Part shown: positions 8,594-52,407 of the stretch, piece by piece
Layout: every line of letters starts with the position of its first letter
Numbering within the stretch: the first letter of the stretch is position 1
Assembly (NCBI GenBank): GCA_030427445.1
Contig: JAUIBQ010000003.1
Span: forward strand, 1,931-65,930
Source: a bacterium
Lineage (GTDB): Bacteria; Patescibacteriota; Saccharimonadia; Saccharimonadales; SZUA-47
Length of the DNA: 64,000 bases
Reading direction: 5' to 3'
The notes under the pieces: model-generated
Told to the model about the DNA's origin: nothing
The model's input: the letters and a program-made list of their open reading frames with translations, nothing else
Databases searched by the model: none
Position numbers and translations under genes: made by a program

Positions 8594-8612
8594 AGTGGTT
8601 GTCCTTTCTTAC

Positions 8613-8633
8613 TTAGTGTTCTATTGACACTAT
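8613..8633. promoter_or_regulatory. NrtR-type operator box 1 (TTAGTGT-N7-ACACTAt)
   Basis: The sequence is TTAGTGTTCTATTGACACTAT. It is part of a perfect 22-bp inverted repeat (8613-8634 versus 8647-8668) and contains a consensus TTGACA at 8624-8629. Confidence 0.65.
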
Positions 8634-8647
8634 ATATAATGTTTAGT

Positions 8648-8668
8648 ATAGTGTCAATAGAACACTAA
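8648..8668. promoter_or_regulatory. NrtR-type operator box 2 (exact inverted copy of box 1)
   Basis: ATAGTGTCAATAGAACACTAA is the reverse complement of box 1. It carries TATAGT (8647-8652), 17 nt from the plus-strand TTGACA, and the minus-strand TTGACA (8657-8652). Confidence 0.65.
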
Positions 8669-8681
8669 CTAGGAGAAAGCC

Positions 8682-10598
8682 ATGAATAAAAATTACGCTC
8701 CACAACAAGACCACATACGGGTTGCTGCCGCGACACCAGAAGTCAACATAAGTGATGTTGAAACAAACGTCAGTAGAATTAAACAGCTATACGAGCAAGC
8801 TGTAGAACAACATGTTACTCTTACTACCTTCCCCGAGATGTCTATCACCGGATATACGATTGGTGATCTAGTAATGCAAACCCAGCTTCTCGAAGATGCG
8901 CGCGAAGGTCTCGTTGAGCTCGCTGACCACACGAAAGATAAAAACGGTGCGATGATTGTAGGTCTGCCATTGCAGGTAAGAAATGGGCTGTACAACACCG
9001 CTGCCTTGCTTGCCGATGGAGAAGTAAAAGGAATCGTGCCAAAACTACATCTACCTACGTATCGTGAGTTTTATGAGAAACGCTGGTTTAGCGAAGGACC
9101 AGAAGAGCTTGAAGAAATTGAGGTTGGCGGTCAAACCACGACATTCGGTGCAAACCAGCTTTTTGAAGTAGCAGGTGCAGTTGTGGGTATAGAGATATGT
9201 GAAGATTTGTGGGTAGCGGACCAGAGAAACATACCACTCGTAACAAATGGAGCTGACATCATCGCCAACCCTTCTGCTTCTCCAGAAATCGCGACAAAAG
9301 GTGCATACCGTCGTGATCTCGTATCATTAACTGCCGGTAGAATCGCCGCTGGATATATCTACTCTGGAGCTGATCCAAGTGAATCAACAAGTGATATCGT
9401 CATGAGTGGTCACGCGCTTGTAAACGAGTTAGGTCGTCCGCTTGCAGAGCGCAAACCGTTCGATTTTAAAGCAGATCGGCTGACCATTGCTGACATTGAC
9501 CTCGGACATATTCGCTACCAACGAAGATTAGACAGCAACTTCCCTCAAGAAAGAAATTTTGCCACGCAAACGACTGAAGTCACCCGCACACAAGACACAC
9601 TGCAAAAAACAATTGACCCAGATGTGTTCATCCCGAAAGGCACGAGTGAAGAAGTCGCTGAGCGGCTTGAGGAAATCTTAACTATCCAAGCAGCTGGACT
9701 TAAAAAGCGCCTAGAGCACATCGGAGCTGAGCGAGTTATACTAGGCCTCTCAGGCGGGCTTGACTCTACACTTGCCCTACTGGTTGCTCTCAAGACAGCT
9801 CAGCTTATGGACAAACAGCCTGGCGACATCATAAAAACGCTTACCATGCCTGGTATGGCCAGTAGCGATCGCACTCAGAGCAACGCAACACGACTTGCCA
9901 ATAGTCTAGGCATCCCAAACGAAGAAATCCCTATCAGCTTCCTCGCGCAACATCAGCTTGAAGCCATCGGCCACGACACGCAAACACAAGATGTAACGTA
10001 CGAAAACACGCAAGCGCGACTTCGCACCAGCTTGCTGTTCAACAAGGGAAACAAAGAAAAAGGTATCGTGCTAGGCACGGGTGACTTGAGCGAAATCGCA
10101 ATCGGCTGGAGCACATACAATGGTGACCATATGTCAGGATACAACGTAAATGGGTCTATACCTAAAACACTCGTGCGACATCTTGTGGCTCATGGTCGAG
10201 ACACACTCGTCGATAACCAAGTGGCATATGAAATCTTGAGCGACGTACTGGATACGCCTATTTCTCCTGAGCTCACCAATGAAGTTGATGGTAATATCTC
10301 TCAGCATACTGAAGATATCATCGGACCTTACGAGCTTCACGATTTCTTCCTCTATTACCAAAATAGATGGGGTGATGCGCCCGCAAAAATTGCTTATCTA
10401 GCAAAGGCTGCGTTTGGTGAAAAATACGAAGCTGAGGAAATCGAAAAGTGGCTAGGAGTATTCACGACTCGCTACTACGGTAACCAATGGAAGCGCAACG
10501 CAATGCCAGACGGACCAAAAGTCGACACAGTCTCAATGAGCCCAAGGGGCGATTTACGGATGCCGGCAGATGCAACTCTCCCACAAAGCATGCTATAG
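8682..10598 (+). CDS. nadE: Glutamine-dependent NAD+ synthetase (CN-hydrolase domain plus NAD synthetase domain)
   Basis: 638-aa ORF. The N-terminal nitrilase-like domain contains ICEDLW. The C-terminal PP-loop is GLSGGLDS. AGGAG lies 7 nt upstream of the ATG. Confidence 0.9.
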   Translation: MNKNYAPQQDHIRVAAATPEVNISDVETNVSRIKQLYEQAVEQHVTLTTFPEMSITGYTIGDLVMQTQLLEDAREGLVELADHTKDKNGAMIVGLPLQVRNGLYNTAALLADGEVKGIVPKLHLPTYREFYEKRWFSEGPEELEEIEVGGQTTTFGANQLFEVAGAVVGIEICEDLWVADQRNIPLVTNGADIIANPSASPEIATKGAYRRDLVSLTAGRIAAGYIYSGADPSESTSDIVMSGHALVNELGRPLAERKPFDFKADRLTIADIDLGHIRYQRRLDSNFPQERNFATQTTEVTRTQDTLQKTIDPDVFIPKGTSEEVAERLEEILTIQAAGLKKRLEHIGAERVILGLSGGLDSTLALLVALKTAQLMDKQPGDIIKTLTMPGMASSDRTQSNATRLANSLGIPNEEIPISFLAQHQLEAIGHDTQTQDVTYENTQARLRTSLLFNKGNKEKGIVLGTGDLSEIAIGWSTYNGDHMSGYNVNGSIPKTLVRHLVAHGRDTLVDNQVAYEILSDVLDTPISPELTNEVDGNISQHTEDIIGPYELHDFFLYYQNRWGDAPAKIAYLAKAAFGEKYEAEEIEKWLGVFTTRYYGNQWKRNAMPDGPKVDTVSMSPRGDLRMPADATLPQSML

Positions 10599-11280
10599 TG
10601 ACACTATGTACGAAACCGAGTATGTTCCACCTACAGTAACTGTCGACGGTGTGATATTTCAAATCATTGACGGCGTACTGTATGTCGCATTGATTAAGCG
10701 TAGCGCTGAACCGTTTAAGGATAGCTGGGCTCTACCTGGAGGCTACAACGCCGCAGGTGAGACGACGCTTGAAGCACTTGAGCGCATCGTGAAACGTAAA
10801 GCTGGTATATCTATCAAAAAACAGACAAAGTTTGCTGAACAGCTATTTACGTTTGACACCGTAGCACGAGATCCACGAGGCCATGCGGTATCAGTAACCT
10901 ATATGGCTTGCGGGCTCGATATTTCTCCGCAGAACTCGTCAGAGCAAACACAGTTTTTCCCTGTAGATAACTTGCCAAAACTTGCGTATGACCACAAAGA
11001 TATCATTACGTACGCTCATGAACGACTTATTTCAAAGCTAAGCTACACAAATGTAGTTTACTCATTGTTGCCAGAGAAGTTCACGATGACAGCACTGCAG
11101 ACAGCCTACGAAGCAGTGTTCCAGCGGGAGCTAGATAAGAGAAACTTCCGGAAGAAGTTTGCACAACTCGACTTAATTAAAGAAACAGACGAGATGTTTA
11201 AAGAAGGTGCACACCGCCCTGCTCGGCTTTACACGTTTAAACAAAATACGCTCCAAACGCTTGTCAGGAGCTTTGACTAG
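10570..11280 (+). CDS. nrtR: NrtR-family transcriptional regulator (N-terminal Nudix-like domain plus C-terminal winged HTH)
   Basis: Nudix-fold N-terminal half (VIFQIIDGVLYVALIKR...WALPGGY). The C-terminal half, LQTAYEAVFQRELDKRNFRKKF...RPARLYTF, is typical of NrtR wHTH domains. The probable true start is the ATG at 10606 (MYETEY), 7 nt after the nadE stop. Confidence 0.75.
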   Translation: MQLSHKACYSDTMYETEYVPPTVTVDGVIFQIIDGVLYVALIKRSAEPFKDSWALPGGYNAAGETTLEALERIVKRKAGISIKKQTKFAEQLFTFDTVARDPRGHAVSVTYMACGLDISPQNSSEQTQFFPVDNLPKLAYDHKDIITYAHERLISKLSYTNVVYSLLPEKFTMTALQTAYEAVFQRELDKRNFRKKFAQLDLIKETDEMFKEGAHRPARLYTFKQNTLQTLVRSFD

Positions 11281-13116: not shown

Positions 13117-13150
13117 GATTTTTACTCCTTACATCCAATAAAATTTATAA

Positions 13151-13171
13151 TTAGTGTTGACATTACACTAA
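13151..13171. promoter_or_regulatory. NrtR-type operator box 3
   Basis: TTAGTGTTGACATTACACTAA has perfect 7-bp palindromic arms around N7. It contains TTGACA (13157-13162), a candidate -35 for pncA. Confidence 0.65.
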
Positions 13172-13192
13172 GTAAGATATACCATATACTTG

Positions 13193-13213
13193 TTATTGTC
13201 AATATGACACTAA
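13193..13213. promoter_or_regulatory. NrtR-type operator box 4
   Basis: TTATTGTCAATATGACACTAA has one arm mismatch. Its reverse strand carries TTGACA, a candidate -35 for the divergent phosphatase operon. The box centre is 42 bp from the box 3 centre. Confidence 0.6.
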
Positions 13214-13231
13214 GTAATAAGGAGGTTTGTC

Positions 13232-23791: not shown

Positions 23792-23868
23792 GGGTGATTA
23801 GCTCAGTTGGCTAGAGCATCTCGTTTACACCGAGAGGGTCGGGGGTTCAAGTCCCTCATCACCCACCA
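23792..23868 (+). tRNA. tRNA-Val (anticodon TAC)
   Basis: Acceptor GGGTGAT/ATCACCC, D arm GCTC/GAGC, anticodon arm TCTCG-TTTACAC-CGAGA, T arm GGGGG-TTCAAGT-CCCTC, encoded CCA. Confidence 0.9.
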
Positions 23869-23876
23869 AATAAAAC

Positions 23877-23902
23877 AGTCGATCTAAAAGGTCGACTTTT
23901 TT
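23877..23902 (+). terminator. Rho-independent terminator after tRNA-Val
   Basis: AGTCGA-TCTAAAAGG-TCGACT hairpin followed by a T6 run. Confidence 0.7.
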
Positions 23903-23932: not shown

Positions 23933-24028
23933 GGGGGATGAGTGCCAGAGAGGCACTCTGAGTAGGAGCGTCACTTGGAAACTCGTTTTCTAAGCCAGCG
24001 ACGATGCCAAGTCCCTCATCACCCACCA
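23933..24028 (+). pseudogene. Degenerate tRNA-Val duplicate (pseudo-tRNA or tRNA-like RNA)
   Basis: The 3' 21 nt CAAGTCCCTCATCACCCACCA (24008-24028) are identical to 23848-23868 of tRNA-Val. The 5' GGGGGATGAG resembles GGGTGATTAG, and GCGTCACTTGG..CTCGTTT resembles GCTCAGTTGG..CTCGTTT of the intact gene. No T arm or anticodon arm can be folded. Confidence 0.55.
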
Positions 24029-24036
24029 GATAAATA

Positions 24037-24066
24037 ACCGGTCTTCATAAAAGAGACCGGTTTTTT
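24037..24066. terminator. Strong, possibly bidirectional, rho-independent terminator
   Basis: ACCGGTCT-loop-AGACCGGT is a perfect 8-bp stem. It is followed by T6 on the plus strand and by a TTATTTAT-rich stretch on the minus strand. Confidence 0.75.
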
Positions 24067-24111
24067 AAATGGTGTGAAAATATAAGAAGTTAAAAGTGCA
24101 AATGGCGTGGA
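24065..24111 (-). repeat. Conserved stop-codon-proximal element, copy 1 (47 nt)
   Basis: The 24-mer AGTTAAAAGTGCAAATGGCGTGGA (24088-24111) is identical to 51055-51078. The flanking TTAAATGGTG and TGAAA..TAAG.AG are also shared. The element ends 2 nt before the stop codon of the minus-strand gene 24114-24548. Confidence 0.7.
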
Positions 24112-24113
24112 TT

Positions 24114-24548
24114 TTATTGCCAAACTGCTAAAATTGCACCCATCACTGAAAGGGCAAAAATATCACCACCAAGCACAATCAACCAGTATTTCAATGACCG
24201 TTGCTCGAACTGCGACATCATGAGCTTATTCATGCCCAATAACCCGACCGCGACCATAGCGCCAAACAATGCTCCTTGGTATAGTTCATCAAGAACTAGA
24301 ACTTTGACAAGCAACCCCATGGCGACTGCAGTTACAAGTGTTGACAGAAACGACAAGCCCATGACCTTGCCCATGCCGTCTTTTGAGCCTTCATCCATCT
24401 TCTTTTTACTGAAGCCTATTTCTTTGCCCCATTGGTATGCCAAAACTGGCTTGCTATACCAAATAGCCCCACTCACAAATGCCGCAATTGCAGCTATAAG
24501 AACTGCTAAAACATTCAGCTCCCCTAAGTAATCTATAAATACTTGCAT
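24114..24548 (-). CDS. DUF1761-like small membrane protein
   Basis: 144-aa ORF with 4 hydrophobic helices. The N-terminal SGAIWYSKPVLAYQWGKEIG resembles the DUF1761 signature (recalled from memory). Confidence 0.55.
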   Translation of the reverse strand: MQVFIDYLGELNVLAVLIAAIAAFVSGAIWYSKPVLAYQWGKEIGFSKKKMDEGSKDGMGKVMGLSFLSTLVTAVAMGLLVKVLVLDELYQGALFGAMVAVGLLGMNKLMMSQFEQRSLKYWLIVLGGDIFALSVMGAILAVWQ

Positions 24549-34023: not shown

Positions 34024-36075
34024 CTAGTTAGAGCAGTCTTGGCTGCTCGTAACGATTGTTTCTCGGTTATTACCACACAAGATTATATCACTTTTATCTG
34101 ATTTCAGCGAGCCCATGATGAGCCACAGCACACATGCGATCACTACCACGAACAGAAGCGCTATCCAACCAGTTTTGCGCTTAATCAACGAACCGTTTTG
34201 TGCTTTTTTCAGCAATGTACCTAGCTCTGAAGCCTGTGCACTTTCTTCTGCATATCGTTGGAAGTATGCTTGTTTTTCTTCGTCGGTTTCAAGTGTAAAT
34301 GGATCTTTATGATAAAAATCATCAGCTATTTCCCGCGCGTACTCAGCCGCAGCTCTTTGCTTCGCCTCTTCACTAACGGGTTTTTCCTGAGCTGTTCTCG
34401 CTTGCTCTAGTTTCTCGCGGTGTTTAGCAAGTTCTTTTTCGTCTGGTTTAATGCTATTTCTGATGATTGTCTCATAGCTTCCAGTCCCTTTCCGCCAATA
34501 TCTCTTTGTCGTCTCAAGTAATGTCTGTTGATCAATTCTTTTTTCATTAAAAGCATCAACCACTCTGACACCATCCACAACGATGTCTTTAGCCTGCACT
34601 TTCAACTCTTGCTCGGTCATCTGCTCGAAGCGCTTACGCGTATTCTCTGAACCGTCTATTTTACGTCGTTCGACAAACATATTCAGCCCGCTCAAGTGAA
34701 CTTCGGCCATCTTTTTGATGCTCCCTTCTTCGTGGAGCCGTTCAGTCGTCTTACGTTTCTCGCTAACTTTCTGTCTTTCCTGCTGCTTTCGTACAAAAAC
34801 CTGGATACGTTCTTTGTTTGTTTTTTCTATTGGTTTCTCCTCGTTAGTCTGCTTGTCGTTCTTGCTCGCCTCTTTTGGTTCCGGACTTTTTTTACGTAGC
34901 TCACTCTTTAGGCGAGTTGTCTCCTCGGCGTGCCGCATAGCTACTTCGCGCACTCTTTCTTCACGATATGCAATCTCATCATGTAGTTTTGCTACATCTT
35001 TCTCTAAGTTGTCGATTTTCGGTTGCAGTTTTTTCTCTGTGCGTTTCCTGCCACCACGACGTCCTATGACGTACCCGACTATGCCACCAATCAGCAGATG
35101 TTTGGCTCGTTTTCTTCGATACCACGTAGAAGATTCTACTCTGCTAAGTGAATTGTCGTGCGCCGATGAAGCGACAGTATGGTTTGGTGAGTTAGGTGGA
35201 ATATTCAGGTTAAAATGTTGGCCTCCGTAATTCGGTGGAGGTCCTCCGCCAAGTGGTGGCGGGGTGTTTGGAGGTTGCTGTGGGCTAAAAGGTCCGCTTG
35301 GCTGAGTGTGATGTTGATTTTGATTGTTGTTATTCGGCTGCTGAGGAGGCTGTTGATGCACATTGTGGCCACCCATGTGTTGCGCTTGCTGTTGTTGAGT
35401 TGGTTGTTGCTGAACCTGCGCAGTAGTCGAGTCATCTTCTTCGTCTACTACTTCTTTATCAGAAGCTACATCGATCGAGGGCTCGCTGAACTCTGTTGCG
35501 TACTCGAGATCTTCAAGAGTTTCCTGCTCAGCATTGTCTAACATATCTTCAGTGAGGTCTTCACCACTACCGATATGTCGCTCAACACTTGTCAAGAATG
35601 CCGCTGCCGCGAGCTCCCCGGCTTCTTCAGGAGAATCCGGCTCAACTCGCGTTAAATTATCTGCAACATCTTCTTGTCTCGCTTGAGTGACATGCGAAGC
35701 AATTTCCCGCGCTTCAGCCTCTGAAATATCTTCTTCAGTCTGGTCATTTTCCACGCCATTTTGCTCTTTTACTTCTTTCGATTCAACAGCATTTTCATTT
35801 TTGCTAACTGTATCAAAATGTCCTTTATCTTCTTTTTTCTCGTTTGCATCGTCGAAAAAGCTCTTCTTATCTTGCTCGTCAGTGTCTTTTTGTTTGGGAG
35901 CGAAAAAGGACGCTTTTCTGTTTTCCGGGGCCTTCGTGTCTTTCTCGGTAGTCTTTTTTTCGGATTTTTTAGATGATTTCTTGTCACGCGAAGACTCACT
36001 CCCGGAAAGGCCTTTTTCGGGATTATGCTTCAATCGTTCATTATCATCTGTCATAGTCTCCACACATTTTAACAA
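34024..36075 (-). CDS. Large low-complexity membrane protein (acidic/lysine-rich regions, Q/N/P-rich core)
   Basis: 683-aa ORF. It contains QQQPTQQQQAQHMGGHNVHQQPPQQPNNNNQNQHH...PPPLGGGPPPNYGG, a mid-protein TM helix (LLIGGIVGYVIG) and a C-terminal TM helix. The probable start is MTDDNERL at 36054. Confidence 0.6.
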   Translation of the reverse strand: MLKCVETMTDDNERLKHNPEKGLSGSESSRDKKSSKKSEKKTTEKDTKAPENRKASFFAPKQKDTDEQDKKSFFDDANEKKEDKGHFDTVSKNENAVESKEVKEQNGVENDQTEEDISEAEAREIASHVTQARQEDVADNLTRVEPDSPEEAGELAAAAFLTSVERHIGSGEDLTEDMLDNAEQETLEDLEYATEFSEPSIDVASDKEVVDEEDDSTTAQVQQQPTQQQQAQHMGGHNVHQQPPQQPNNNNQNQHHTQPSGPFSPQQPPNTPPPLGGGPPPNYGGQHFNLNIPPNSPNHTVASSAHDNSLSRVESSTWYRRKRAKHLLIGGIVGYVIGRRGGRKRTEKKLQPKIDNLEKDVAKLHDEIAYREERVREVAMRHAEETTRLKSELRKKSPEPKEASKNDKQTNEEKPIEKTNKERIQVFVRKQQERQKVSEKRKTTERLHEEGSIKKMAEVHLSGLNMFVERRKIDGSENTRKRFEQMTEQELKVQAKDIVVDGVRVVDAFNEKRIDQQTLLETTKRYWRKGTGSYETIIRNSIKPDEKELAKHREKLEQARTAQEKPVSEEAKQRAAAEYAREIADDFYHKDPFTLETDEEKQAYFQRYAEESAQASELGTLLKKAQNGSLIKRKTGWIALLFVVVIACVLWLIMGSLKSDKSDIILCGNNRETIVTSSQDCSN

Positions 36076-49653: not shown

Positions 49654-50933
<1,280 letters not shown>

Positions 50934-50993
50934 TCATTATAGATGAGATGAGAAAAAGTATAAAGTTTTGAAGCTCAGCAATAAATCATAAAA

Positions 50994-51078
50994 TTAAATG
51001 GTGCAAAGCCCCGTAGTAATGCAAGGCATTTGCTAACGGGGTGAAATCTTAAGGAGTTAAAAGTGCAAATGGCGTGGA
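50994..51078 (-). repeat. Conserved stop-codon-proximal element, copy 2 (85 nt, with a 38-nt hairpin insertion)
   Basis: Same ends as copy 1 (TTAAATGGTG ... AGTTAAAAGTGCAAATGGCGTGGA). It also carries an internal CCCCGT...ACGGGG hairpin (51009-51041). The element ends 2 nt before the stop codon of 51081-52049. Confidence 0.7.
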
Positions 51079-51080
51079 AA

Positions 51081-52049
51081 TTAGTAGATATAGCTATAAT
51101 ACGCTGCTTGCTGTGCAGTGAGAACTCGATACGAAACAACATTCCAACCAGCATAGTTCATTTCACTAATACGTACGCTACCATCGCCGTAGACTTCTTC
51201 TACATATCCGACGTGCCCATAGTAATCACTCGGCGGTGTCCAAATGACTGCACCTGCTTGCGGTGTATTTCCTACTCCGAGTCCAGCACGCTGTGCAAGT
51301 ACTTTCCACGTACTTGCGTTACCTAAGTTTGCCGGGATTGGTTTGCCGGCTTGTGCACGCTTGTTTGCTGCATACCACGTACAATAGCCGTATACATAAC
51401 CGTTGTAGCCATAGACTGCGGATGTACCGAATCGAAATCCGCTATAGGACGGAACTGAACGTCGTACTGGCGCTGGTACTTCTCCATTTGGTATGACGAT
51501 TTTCTGTCCTTCTTTCAGACCTGTAATCTCTGCATCATTAAATGCTATGATCGCCTTTTCATTGGAGTTATAGTTATCAGCAATCTTTTCTGCTGTATCA
51601 CCTGACTTTACCGTGTAGACAATACCGTTCACTGGTGGGATTAACAAGGTGTCCCCTGCATCTAAACTGTCCCCTGAAAGATCGTTTGACCATTTTATAG
51701 AGTTGCTTGAAATACCAAACTCTTCTGCTAATGATGAAACTGTATCGCCTTCTTTGACTGTGTATTCTGATAAGTCACTAATTGATCGACTCTCAGTTGA
51801 AACTATTTGTGGTTTAGCAACAACTTGTGAATCAGCTGGAACTATTTCTAACTGTGAGTTTACCGTGTCGGCGTTATTTTTAACTGCCGTGGTCTCCTCA
51901 AGACGAGCAAGCTCGGCTATCGATACTGCAATGTCAGCAGATGAGAGCTTATCGAGTGGATCGACTTCTTTTTCTTCAGTTACAGCATCTAAGACAACAG
52001 TACTTTCACGGTCTTCGCTCGTCGTTCCTAATGCAACAAAACCAACCAC
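51081..52049 (-). CDS. Peptidoglycan hydrolase with three LysM repeats and a C-terminal CHAP domain
   Basis: LysM repeats are YTVKEGDTVSSLAEEFG, YTVKSGDTAEKIADNY and similar. CHAP is shown by GYCTWYAANKR...GHVGYVE. The track GTG start cuts a TM helix in half. The frame stays open to 52190, and AAGGAG plus 5 nt plus ATT at 52172 would restore a basic tail and TM anchor. Confidence 0.85.
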   Translation of the reverse strand: MVGFVALGTTSEDRESTVVLDAVTEEKEVDPLDKLSSADIAVSIAELARLEETTAVKNNADTVNSQLEIVPADSQVVAKPQIVSTESRSISDLSEYTVKEGDTVSSLAEEFGISSNSIKWSNDLSGDSLDAGDTLLIPPVNGIVYTVKSGDTAEKIADNYNSNEKAIIAFNDAEITGLKEGQKIVIPNGEVPAPVRRSVPSYSGFRFGTSAVYGYNGYVYGYCTWYAANKRAQAGKPIPANLGNASTWKVLAQRAGLGVGNTPQAGAVIWTPPSDYYGHVGYVEEVYGDGSVRISEMNYAGWNVVSYRVLTAQQAAYYSYIY

Positions 52050-52407
52050 TCCGAGAACAACTAAAAGATTGACTGCAAATAAACCATTTCGCAGTAAACG
52101 CCGTTTTCCTCTTGTGATTTTACGTGATATGTTCCGTGCTGTTTTACCAACACCAAATTGTCGCGTTTTAATACTTTCTCCTTTATGAACTCATGCCTGT
52201 AGAGAATTTTCTCAGAGATTCATAGGTTTATCTTATGATGCGCTTTTAATACGTTATTTGTATAGTGGTGTAAGCCAGTTTGAGCTTACAAATGTGCTAT
52301 TTAGGCACATACTGTTTGTTTTACATCATTTATTAAGGTAAACCACACCGTACCAGACGCCAACACTTTATGTAACTGAGTGTGTATATCTGTTAGTGTT
52401 AACGAGA

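Follow-up and report, generated by a model that had tools for sequence, protein, structure and literature searches.

A short conserved element that follows the stop codons of two unrelated Saccharibacteria genes

The window analysed here, a 64-kb stretch (64,000 nt) of contig JAUIBQ010000003.1 from a genome that we call W, contains two copies of a 47-nt element. One lies directly behind a gene for a DUF1761 membrane protein and the other directly behind a gene for a LysM-CHAP peptidoglycan hydrolase, whose protein homologues carry the name Candidatus Saccharibacteria. The element recurs at orthologous sites in related genomes, and its preservation there indicates that it is under purifying selection. 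The initial annotation of this DNA had described a conserved non-coding element placed so that it would be transcribed as a 3' untranslated region (UTR), and our comparisons support that description. We tentatively propose that the element is a single-stranded docking site within the 3' UTR that controls the formation of mRNA 3' ends or the stability of the mRNA. Sequence comparison establishes where the element lies, its orientation, its range among relatives, its purifying selection, its composition and the lack of a predicted structure; that it acts as RNA, serves for docking and affects 3' ends is inferred, and we regard this reading as possible rather than probable.

Element counts rest on eight instances over both loci. 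The orthologous loci of relatives were retrieved through an exact-protein look-up. Genome A is represented by loci L002/L003/L004 and L006, with L003 and L006 on one contig. Genome B is represented by L005 and L008 and genome C by L013 and L007; in each of these cases both loci come from one sample, and a single genome was assumed. Genome D is represented by one locus only, L015. Profile searches covered ~230 kb, made up of the window and ~170 kb of the relatives' loci.

Sequence, range and conservation of the element

The two copies in the window share a 24-nt core, AGTTAAAAGTGCAAATGGCGTGGA, that occurs exactly twice there (24088-24111 and 51055-51078, both on the + strand) when zero occurrences are expected by chance (100 shuffles). 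They also share a distal 10-mer, TTAAATGGTG, at 24065-24074 and 50994-51003. The four mismatches between the copies are confined to 13 nt (24075-24087 versus 51042-51054). Each copy stops 2 nt short of the TTA (the TAA stop) of a minus-strand open reading frame (ORF), and similarity between the copies begins only past the stop codons, the C-termini of the two upstream proteins being unrelated (...ILAVWQ for DUF1761 and ...YYSYIY for LysM-CHAP). These coordinates bear out the exact core, the identical 10-nt distal end, the shared strand and the 2-nt distance from the stop codons of two minus-strand genes that the initial annotation had reported, and they agree with its view that no coding duplication is involved. 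Its count of four mismatches also stands, although it had spread them over 22 nt.

Read in the sense of the genes, the element has the sequence TCCACGCCATTTGCACTTTTAACT(T/C)CTTA(TAT/AGA)TTTCACACCATTTAA. Across the eight instances it resolves into three conserved blocks, T(C/T)CACGCC(A/G)TTTG, TAACT(C/T)CTTA and TTTCAC(AC/TT)CATTT, with variable stretches of 5-6 nt and then 3 nt between them. The region from block 1 to block 3 aligns without gaps. All eight copies are 46 or 47 nt long. They vary in length only by a single base in the gap that separates the stop codon from block 1, and CAC lies 3-4 nt from the stop codon in 8/8 instances. Orientation is the same at both loci. An internal direct repeat, AAATGG(T/C)GTG, is present in copy 1 as previously noted (24067-24076 and 24100-24109, 33 nt apart). 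The likeness between its half-sites is 8-9/10 in W and in its closest relative, A, and weakens to 6-7/10 in B, C and D; the 33-bp spacing is kept in all copies.

A coding origin for this conservation is extremely improbable. It would take the form of a read-through extension of both proteins (xPRHLHF-stop) or of a small ORF on the opposite strand (MQMAW...). The frame past both stops does read (N/F/I)PRHLHF-stop in W and A, and the + strand does offer AAGGAG followed after 6 nt by GTG CAA ATG GCG TGG. However, the single-base variation ahead of block 1 shifts the frame in L005, L007 and L015, and the + strand starts are lost in L002 (CTT, ACG), L013 and L015. ORF lengths of 4, 4, 11 and 87 amino acids (aa) leave no common product. 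We rejected both forms because of the frame shifts in three relatives and the lost start codons.

Copy 1 occupies the orthologous site in five genomes (W, L002/L004, L005, L013 and L015), among which DUF1761 identity ranges from 97% down to 76%. Copy 2 is found in three genomes, W, L006 (94%) and L007 (89%). Two more distant genomes do not have it: in L008 (84%) the site holds an extra gene, and L014 (73%) shows a hairpin after the LysM-CHAP stop codon (by eye). The distant DUF1761 loci L016 and L017 have no element, and there a convergent gene abuts DUF1761. Because copy 1 has the wider range and copy 2 is restricted to a subclade, copy 1 is taken to be older and copy 2 to be one later duplication. 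The range of the element is narrow, roughly one genus of Saccharibacteria. Within genome C the two copies are identical at 30/47 positions, compared with 33-35/47 for orthologues. Concerted evolution of copies 1 and 2 is hinted at only by the AC/TT state in block 3; the pairwise matrix gives it no support, and we rejected it.

Conservation of the element stands out against neighbouring sequence that has lost its resemblance. Four-fold degenerate sites of the flanking genes are saturated between W and genomes B, C and D (32-34% identical), and those of DUF1761 itself are 29-39% identical. Over the same comparisons the element retains 33-36/47 positions without gaps (70-77%) and 72-79% in a gapped alignment, above every shuffle. 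The corresponding binomial probabilities are 1e-7 to 2e-9, and they stay at <=4e-4 even at a generous chance identity of 45%. The spacer between the FAD-oxidase and DUF1761 genes and the sequence of the terminator behind copy 1 are conserved only at shuffle level. Since the element is kept despite saturated synonymous sites and unconserved neighbours, purifying selection is indicated. The initial annotation had allowed for a duplication with no conservation in relatives; what is found is copies at orthologous sites across synonymously saturated genomes.

Copies beyond these orthologous sites were sought with nhmmer profiles, and none was detected in the ~230 kb apart from a marginal match inside the coding region of a 683-aa gene (Table 1). 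The copy number thus remains at two in 64 kb, with none elsewhere in the ~170 kb of relatives, and the low count that might have spoken for a chance duplication is accompanied by conservation in those relatives. The marginal match scored E=0.015, then 0.063 with a better profile, and a binomial estimate put it at ~0.01. Within it lies a perfect 12-mer, TCCACGCCATTT (35750-35761), complementary to block 1 in the mRNA of the 683-aa gene. The match encodes NAVESKEVKEQNGVE in a lysine/glutamate-rich stretch, where NAVE and NGVE repeat at a 33-nt period like the direct repeat of the element. This peptide is shared with genome A and is not conserved in B or C, and the orthologous proteins have no insertion signature. 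We treat it as probably a chance match, helped by pyrimidine-rich composition, and not as a third copy.

Wider scans used degenerate patterns that covered all eight instances. The strict pattern gave 0 matches in GTDB genomes (one per species), and a looser pattern gave one, in an Anoxychlamydiales metagenome-assembled genome, without extended similarity. JGI metagenomes yielded 3 matches, none with extended similarity, and viral contigs 1 match without it. All of these scattered matches are attributed to chance. Rfam at gathering thresholds reported only two tRNA matches in the window, and permissive Rfam scans of both loci returned sub-threshold noise only, in line with the earlier failure to match the element to any known motif.

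Identity between W and A alone proves little because these two genomes form a recombination mosaic. At the second locus, the element is 45/47 identical between them, and a ~30-nt spacer right after it is visibly rearranged. The stretch from the element to the next gene, obg, is 74% identical overall, the spacer lying between 93% and 98% identical flanks, and the obg promoter and obg are ~98% identical. The mosaic itself can be followed along window positions 12800-62000 in comparison with L002 and L006. Tracts of 92-100% identity comprise DUF1761, the tRNAs, obg and 9.6 kb past the tRNAs; divergent tracts (57-80%, four-fold sites saturated) comprise the FAD oxidase and YceG. This pattern indicates recent homologous exchange between diverged Saccharibacteria lineages.

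The mosaic bears on another explanation, namely that the element is a functionless relic of illegitimate recombination or of a mobile element and only seems conserved through recent recombination or gene conversion. There are only two copies, both in plastic regions (one beside a duplicated tRNA-Val 3' end, the other split by a 38-nt insertion). The near-identity of W and A is uninformative, and copy 1 differs between them at 6/47 positions inside a 94-99% identical tract. We nevertheless consider a relic improbable, in that the element is conserved against B, C and D. The adjoining DUF1761 four-fold sites at 29-39% identity and the differing terminator sequence argue that no recent transfer tract covers it there. 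The element also has no terminal inverted repeats, no target-site duplication, no extra copies in the ~230 kb and no extended-similarity matches in the genome, metagenome and viral collections, and its paralogues are no more alike than its orthologues in genome C.

Setting of the two copies

Table 1. Coordinates of the element and associated features in the window
Feature	Position	Strand	Description
Copy 1	24065..24111	-	mRNA sense TCCACGCCATTTGCACTTTTAACTTCTTATATTTTCACACCATTTAA; orthologous copies in L002/L004, L005, L013, L015
DUF1761 membrane-protein gene	24114..24548	-	PF08570; TAA 24114-24116, 2 nt upstream of copy 1
Bidirectional terminator hairpin	24036..24062	.	common to the DUF1761 gene and the convergent tRNA-Val gene
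Copy 2, stop-proximal 38 nt	51041..51078	-	TCCACGCCATTTGCACTTTTAACTCCTTAAGATTTCAC; blocks 1, 2 and start of block 3; orthologues in L006, L007
Insertion within copy 2	51003..51040	-	38 nt; CCCCGT...ACGGGG hairpin; not in L006, L007
Copy 2, distal end	50994..51002	-	ACCATTTAA; split from rest of copy by the insertion
LysM-CHAP peptidoglycan hydrolase gene	51081..52049	-	TAA 51081-51083, 2 nt upstream of copy 2
obg promoter	50936..50964	-	TTTATA-17-TATAAT; -10 box 8 nt before ATG
Weak third match	35750..35794	+	32/45 ungapped; in coding region of the 683-aa gene, opposite orientation to the gene

Copy 1 occupies the entire interval from the DUF1761 stop codon to the terminator, and because it exactly fills this interval it is taken to be part of the mRNA. 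It lies between the stop codon and the hairpin in all four genomes with sequence that reaches the hairpin. The position and the hairpin of this terminator are kept in relatives and its sequence is not. There is no promoter near copy 1; the terminator and the antisense tRNA-Val gene come next, and a tRNA-Leu promoter (read off the L002 sequence) lies ~190 bp away. The neighbouring tRNA-Val gene has been rearranged. Its last 27 nt (23848-23874) are repeated at 24008-24034, and the two repeats flank a ~133-nt insert that carries its own terminator (23877-23897). The same site has no insert in L002 and a different insert of ~170 nt in L005 (about 10505-10700). This combination of a repeated tRNA 3' end and an insert next to copy 1 looks like an integration/excision scar.

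Copy 2 spans 50994-51078 and exceeds copy 1 in length through the 38-nt insertion. L006 and L007 have copy 2 without this insertion, which is therefore specific to W, and the sequence of its hairpin is found at a single place in the window and in none of the retrieved loci. This hairpin is without a proper U-tract and was not called by the terminator scan. The initial annotation had placed the element between a stop codon and a terminator hairpin at both loci. That arrangement is correct for copy 1, which is followed by a real terminator, but not for copy 2, where the hairpin is the insertion inside the element. The right end of the insertion, CTTTGCAC, resembles the TTTCAC at its left junction, and the insertion holds GCATTTGC and TTTGCAC motifs that recall block 1 of the element. 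Its sequence suggests that it is duplication-associated.

Downstream of copy 2, the -35 hexamer of obg follows after ~30 nt in W, L006 and L007, which places copy 2 at roughly -68 to -112 relative to the obg promoter. No hairpin terminator is found between the LysM-CHAP gene and obg in L006 and L007. The hairpin in L014, which is without the element, and the lack of one in L006 and L007 fit the idea that the element could replace a terminator.

These positions also bring in a reading at the level of DNA. The element may be a double-stranded binding site (an operator, an activator site or a roadblock) for a putative lineage-specific protein that reads CAC(G/A)CCATTT half-sites 33 bp apart together with the central TAAC-N3-TTA. 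Such a protein would explain why sequence and spacing are conserved and structure is not, and why the direct repeat is set about three helical turns apart. It would also suit the end of copy 2 so close to a conserved obg -35 hexamer in three genomes, and a protein roadblock could stand in for the hairpin terminator that is absent from L006 and L007. However, copy 1 is without a nearby promoter, the half-sites are well alike only in W and A, and a DNA site requires neither a fixed orientation nor a fixed stop-codon register. No regulator gene is evident beside either locus in the Pfam tables. On balance we judge a DNA site to be a rather unlikely explanation.

Two side observations concern the genes around copy 2. 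In 5/5 genomes (window 50925-50964; L006 about 11058-11099; L007, L008 and L014) the obg TATAAT box precedes the ATG by 8-10 nt, without a Shine-Dalgarno sequence, and from this arrangement of sequence the obg mRNA appears to be leaderless. The LysM-CHAP frame is open from 52190, and the part upstream of the GTG at 52049 encodes a basic stretch and a hydrophobic helix. An AAAGGAG followed by ATT at 52172 would give a LysM-CHAP protein of 363 aa, which fits homologues of 363-373 aa. This non-canonical ATT is probably the real start, leaving a leader of ~230 nt instead of 400 nt, and Rfam gave no match in that leader.

A candidate docking site in the 3' UTR

The element is C-rich and G-poor on the mRNA strand. 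Its GC skew lies between -0.33 and -0.73 in 8/8 copies, compared with a genomic value of ~+0.1 on the same strand, and among the 21 3' flanks in the window the two copies rank first and second for C>G. Minimum free energy (MFE) folds leave the element mostly unpaired in W1, W2, L006 and L013 and form no stable hairpin in the element itself, and the terminator scan calls only the hairpin behind copy 1. RNAalifold predicts no consensus pairs in the element alignment. The covariance check that the initial annotation had called for gave no significant covariation and no support for a secondary structure. The one possible stem is AU-rich and closes a CU(C/U)C loop, of which variants (CUUC, CUCA, CACU) occur in 4/8 copies. 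By eye, changes particular to one lineage strengthen this stem in A1 (10 pairs) and in D1 (7 pairs) via G-U pairs, which are valid only on the mRNA strand.

We propose an RNA docking element because the two loci share an orientation and register, copy 1 is in the transcript, the RNA is skewed toward C over G and mostly unpaired, and L006 and L007 have no terminator behind the LysM-CHAP gene. In outline, the element would have arisen downstream of the DUF1761 gene in a narrow clade of Saccharibacteria, and a subclade would have gained a single further copy, from the stop codon on, behind the LysM-CHAP gene. In either mRNA, once the ribosome leaves the stop codon, a C-rich, G-poor and unstructured RNA would be exposed. 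It would carry three blocks of constrained sequence set at fixed distances, U(C/U)CACGCC(A/G)UUUG, UAACU(C/U)CUUA and UUUCAC(AC/UU)CAUUU. The exposed RNA could then dock a trans-acting factor, which might be an RNA-binding protein (Rho, or one of KH type), a ribonuclease or a complementary RNA, and the docked factor would set the end or the lifetime of the transcript. If so, DUF1761 transcription would be kept from the antisense tRNA-Val gene and LysM-CHAP transcription from the putative leaderless obg promoter.

Several points weigh against this proposal. Neither Rho utilization (rut) sites nor generic protein-docking sites usually show 70-77% conservation together with a fixed spacing. The conservation is therefore too specific for a generic rut site, and a more specific partner must be assumed. 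At 47 nt the element also falls short of the length of a classical rut region. The retrieved loci showed no Rho, and our literature search on Saccharibacteria small RNAs (sRNAs) or Rho returned nothing usable. The C excess is located in the conserved blocks and not in the variable columns, which indicates motif content and not a general avoidance of G. The central AU stem has 73.8% of cells paired versus 71.9% in shuffles, and 113-337/500 shuffles reach the observed value (8 sequences, low power).

Placement is open to the same kind of objection. The initial annotation had emphasised a fixed stop-codon register in two unrelated genes. This register is seen at both loci, but it and the shared orientation rest as arguments on one duplication event. 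A register match within 1 nt arises by chance in ~3-5% of placements, and the shared register would be open to explanation by chance or by microhomology at TAA(A) after that one duplication. The position of copy 2 relative to the obg promoter is explained equally well by the DNA-level model.

The same features could also reflect the seed of sibling 3'UTR-derived sRNAs that are cut from the two mRNAs near the stop codon, that act in trans and whose C-rich blocks, including an anti-Shine-Dalgarno-like CUCCUUA, pair with the ribosome-binding regions of target mRNAs. Copy 1 has the expected layout of a conserved unstructured stretch and then a terminator hairpin that is kept in structure and not in sequence. 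The presence of two copies with a common core is reminiscent of sibling sRNAs. The AAGGAG-type ribosome-binding sites of these genomes have their complement in block 2, and in W, A2, B1 and C2 the reverse complement of the element, UAAGGAGUUAAAAGUGCAAAUGGCGUGGA, resembles by eye a translation start (AAGGAG, 6 nt, GTG/TTG, then ATG). A perfect 12-nt complement to block 1 exists in the mRNA of the 683-aa gene, at the marginal match described above. We still hold an sRNA seed to be unlikely. In L006 and L007 a terminator hairpin is absent from copy 2, and the anti-Shine-Dalgarno-like loop is not conserved, being altered in 4/8 copies. No target with extended complementarity was found in the 64 kb besides that one marginal site (E=0.063), whose peptide is not conserved in B and C. 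Pairing of the element with the translation start of its own gene is no better than in shuffled controls.

The docking proposal and the sRNA idea could also be combined. The element might then be a sequence-specific 3'-UTR signal, read in single-stranded form as soon as translation ends, that recruits a lineage-specific factor for terminating or processing transcripts in genomes largely without hairpin terminators and that is released as a sibling sRNA pair. This would make it the first recognisable regulatory non-coding RNA module of Saccharibacteria, and we offer it as speculation, with little expectation that all of its parts are correct.

Comparison with known elements and significance

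The element could not be assigned to any of several familiar classes of short sequence. It is not an intrinsic terminator, since it is without a G+C-rich hairpin and U-tract. A mobile repeat, of the kind exemplified by REP sequences or miniature inverted-repeat transposable elements, was rejected on the basis of two copies in 64 kb, no palindrome and no target-site duplication; the ends of the element, TCCACGCC and CACCATTTAA, are direct and not inverted. As for an integron attC site, the element agrees with the RYYYAAC consensus in L005 alone (ATTTAAC), and neither a GTTRRRY partner nor a palindrome is present. The two copies are not the attL and attR sites of a 27-kb island either, as gene order is conserved and the LysM-CHAP-obg junction is intact in relatives without copy 2. 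Comparison by eye with dif, DnaA box, boxA, IHF, parS, Ter and attC sites revealed partial likenesses, none of which is conserved in the eight copies.

A separate repeat family was observed elsewhere in the window. It is palindromic, ~25-28 nt long and centred around a TTGACA box, and it sits in two intergenic regions 4.5 kb apart (8606-8674 and 13139-13220). Examples are TCTTACTTAGTGTTCTATTGACACTATA and TATAGTGTCAATAGAACACTAACTAGGA, which are 93% complementary. This family looks like a shared operator that overlaps promoters.

Among known systems, 3'UTR-derived (type II) sRNAs such as CpxQ, SroC and SdhX resemble copy 1 in extending from a stop codon to the gene's own terminator, with the single-stranded part conserved as sequence and only the terminator as structure. 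Unlike them, copy 2 is without a terminator in 2/3 genomes, and the element has no Rfam similarity to any described sRNA. Rho rut sites are alike in being C-rich, G-poor, unstructured RNA just past a stop codon where read-through would be harmful, and the absence of a hairpin terminator at copy 2 in relatives adds to the likeness. In contrast to rut sites, the element is only 47 nt long, and blockwise sequence conservation at fixed spacing is usually not seen in them. The C-rich seeds of Firmicutes sRNAs (UCCC/CUCC, as in RsaE/RoxS and LhrC) have a counterpart in the CU(C/U)C between short AU-rich arms, which is likewise complementary to AAGGAG-type sites. Unlike those seeds, the loop and stem of the element are inconsistently conserved, and its strongest conservation lies in the flanking blocks.

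REP/BIME, BOX, RUP, Correia and attC repeats share with the element the character of a short repeat right behind the stop codons of unrelated genes. They differ in number (tens to hundreds versus two copies), and the element is neither palindromic nor equipped with the RYYYAAC/GTTRRRY core pair. It is also positionally orthologous and selectively conserved, and not mobile. The element may therefore lie outside every described family and may be functionally most like 3'UTR-derived sRNAs and rut sites.

To our knowledge, the ultra-small, host-dependent bacteria of the Candidate Phyla Radiation (CPR) are almost a blank as far as non-coding regulation, the termination of transcription and the biology of mRNA 3' ends are concerned. 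If the element proves to be no more than an operator confined to this clade or a minor motif of 3' UTRs, then its importance would be local, as its range is narrow and its copy number low. Some Saccharibacteria can now be cultured and transformed. A short, selectively conserved and precisely placed element at the genes for a membrane protein and a cell-wall hydrolase would consequently offer a testable handle on non-coding regulation in CPR bacteria.

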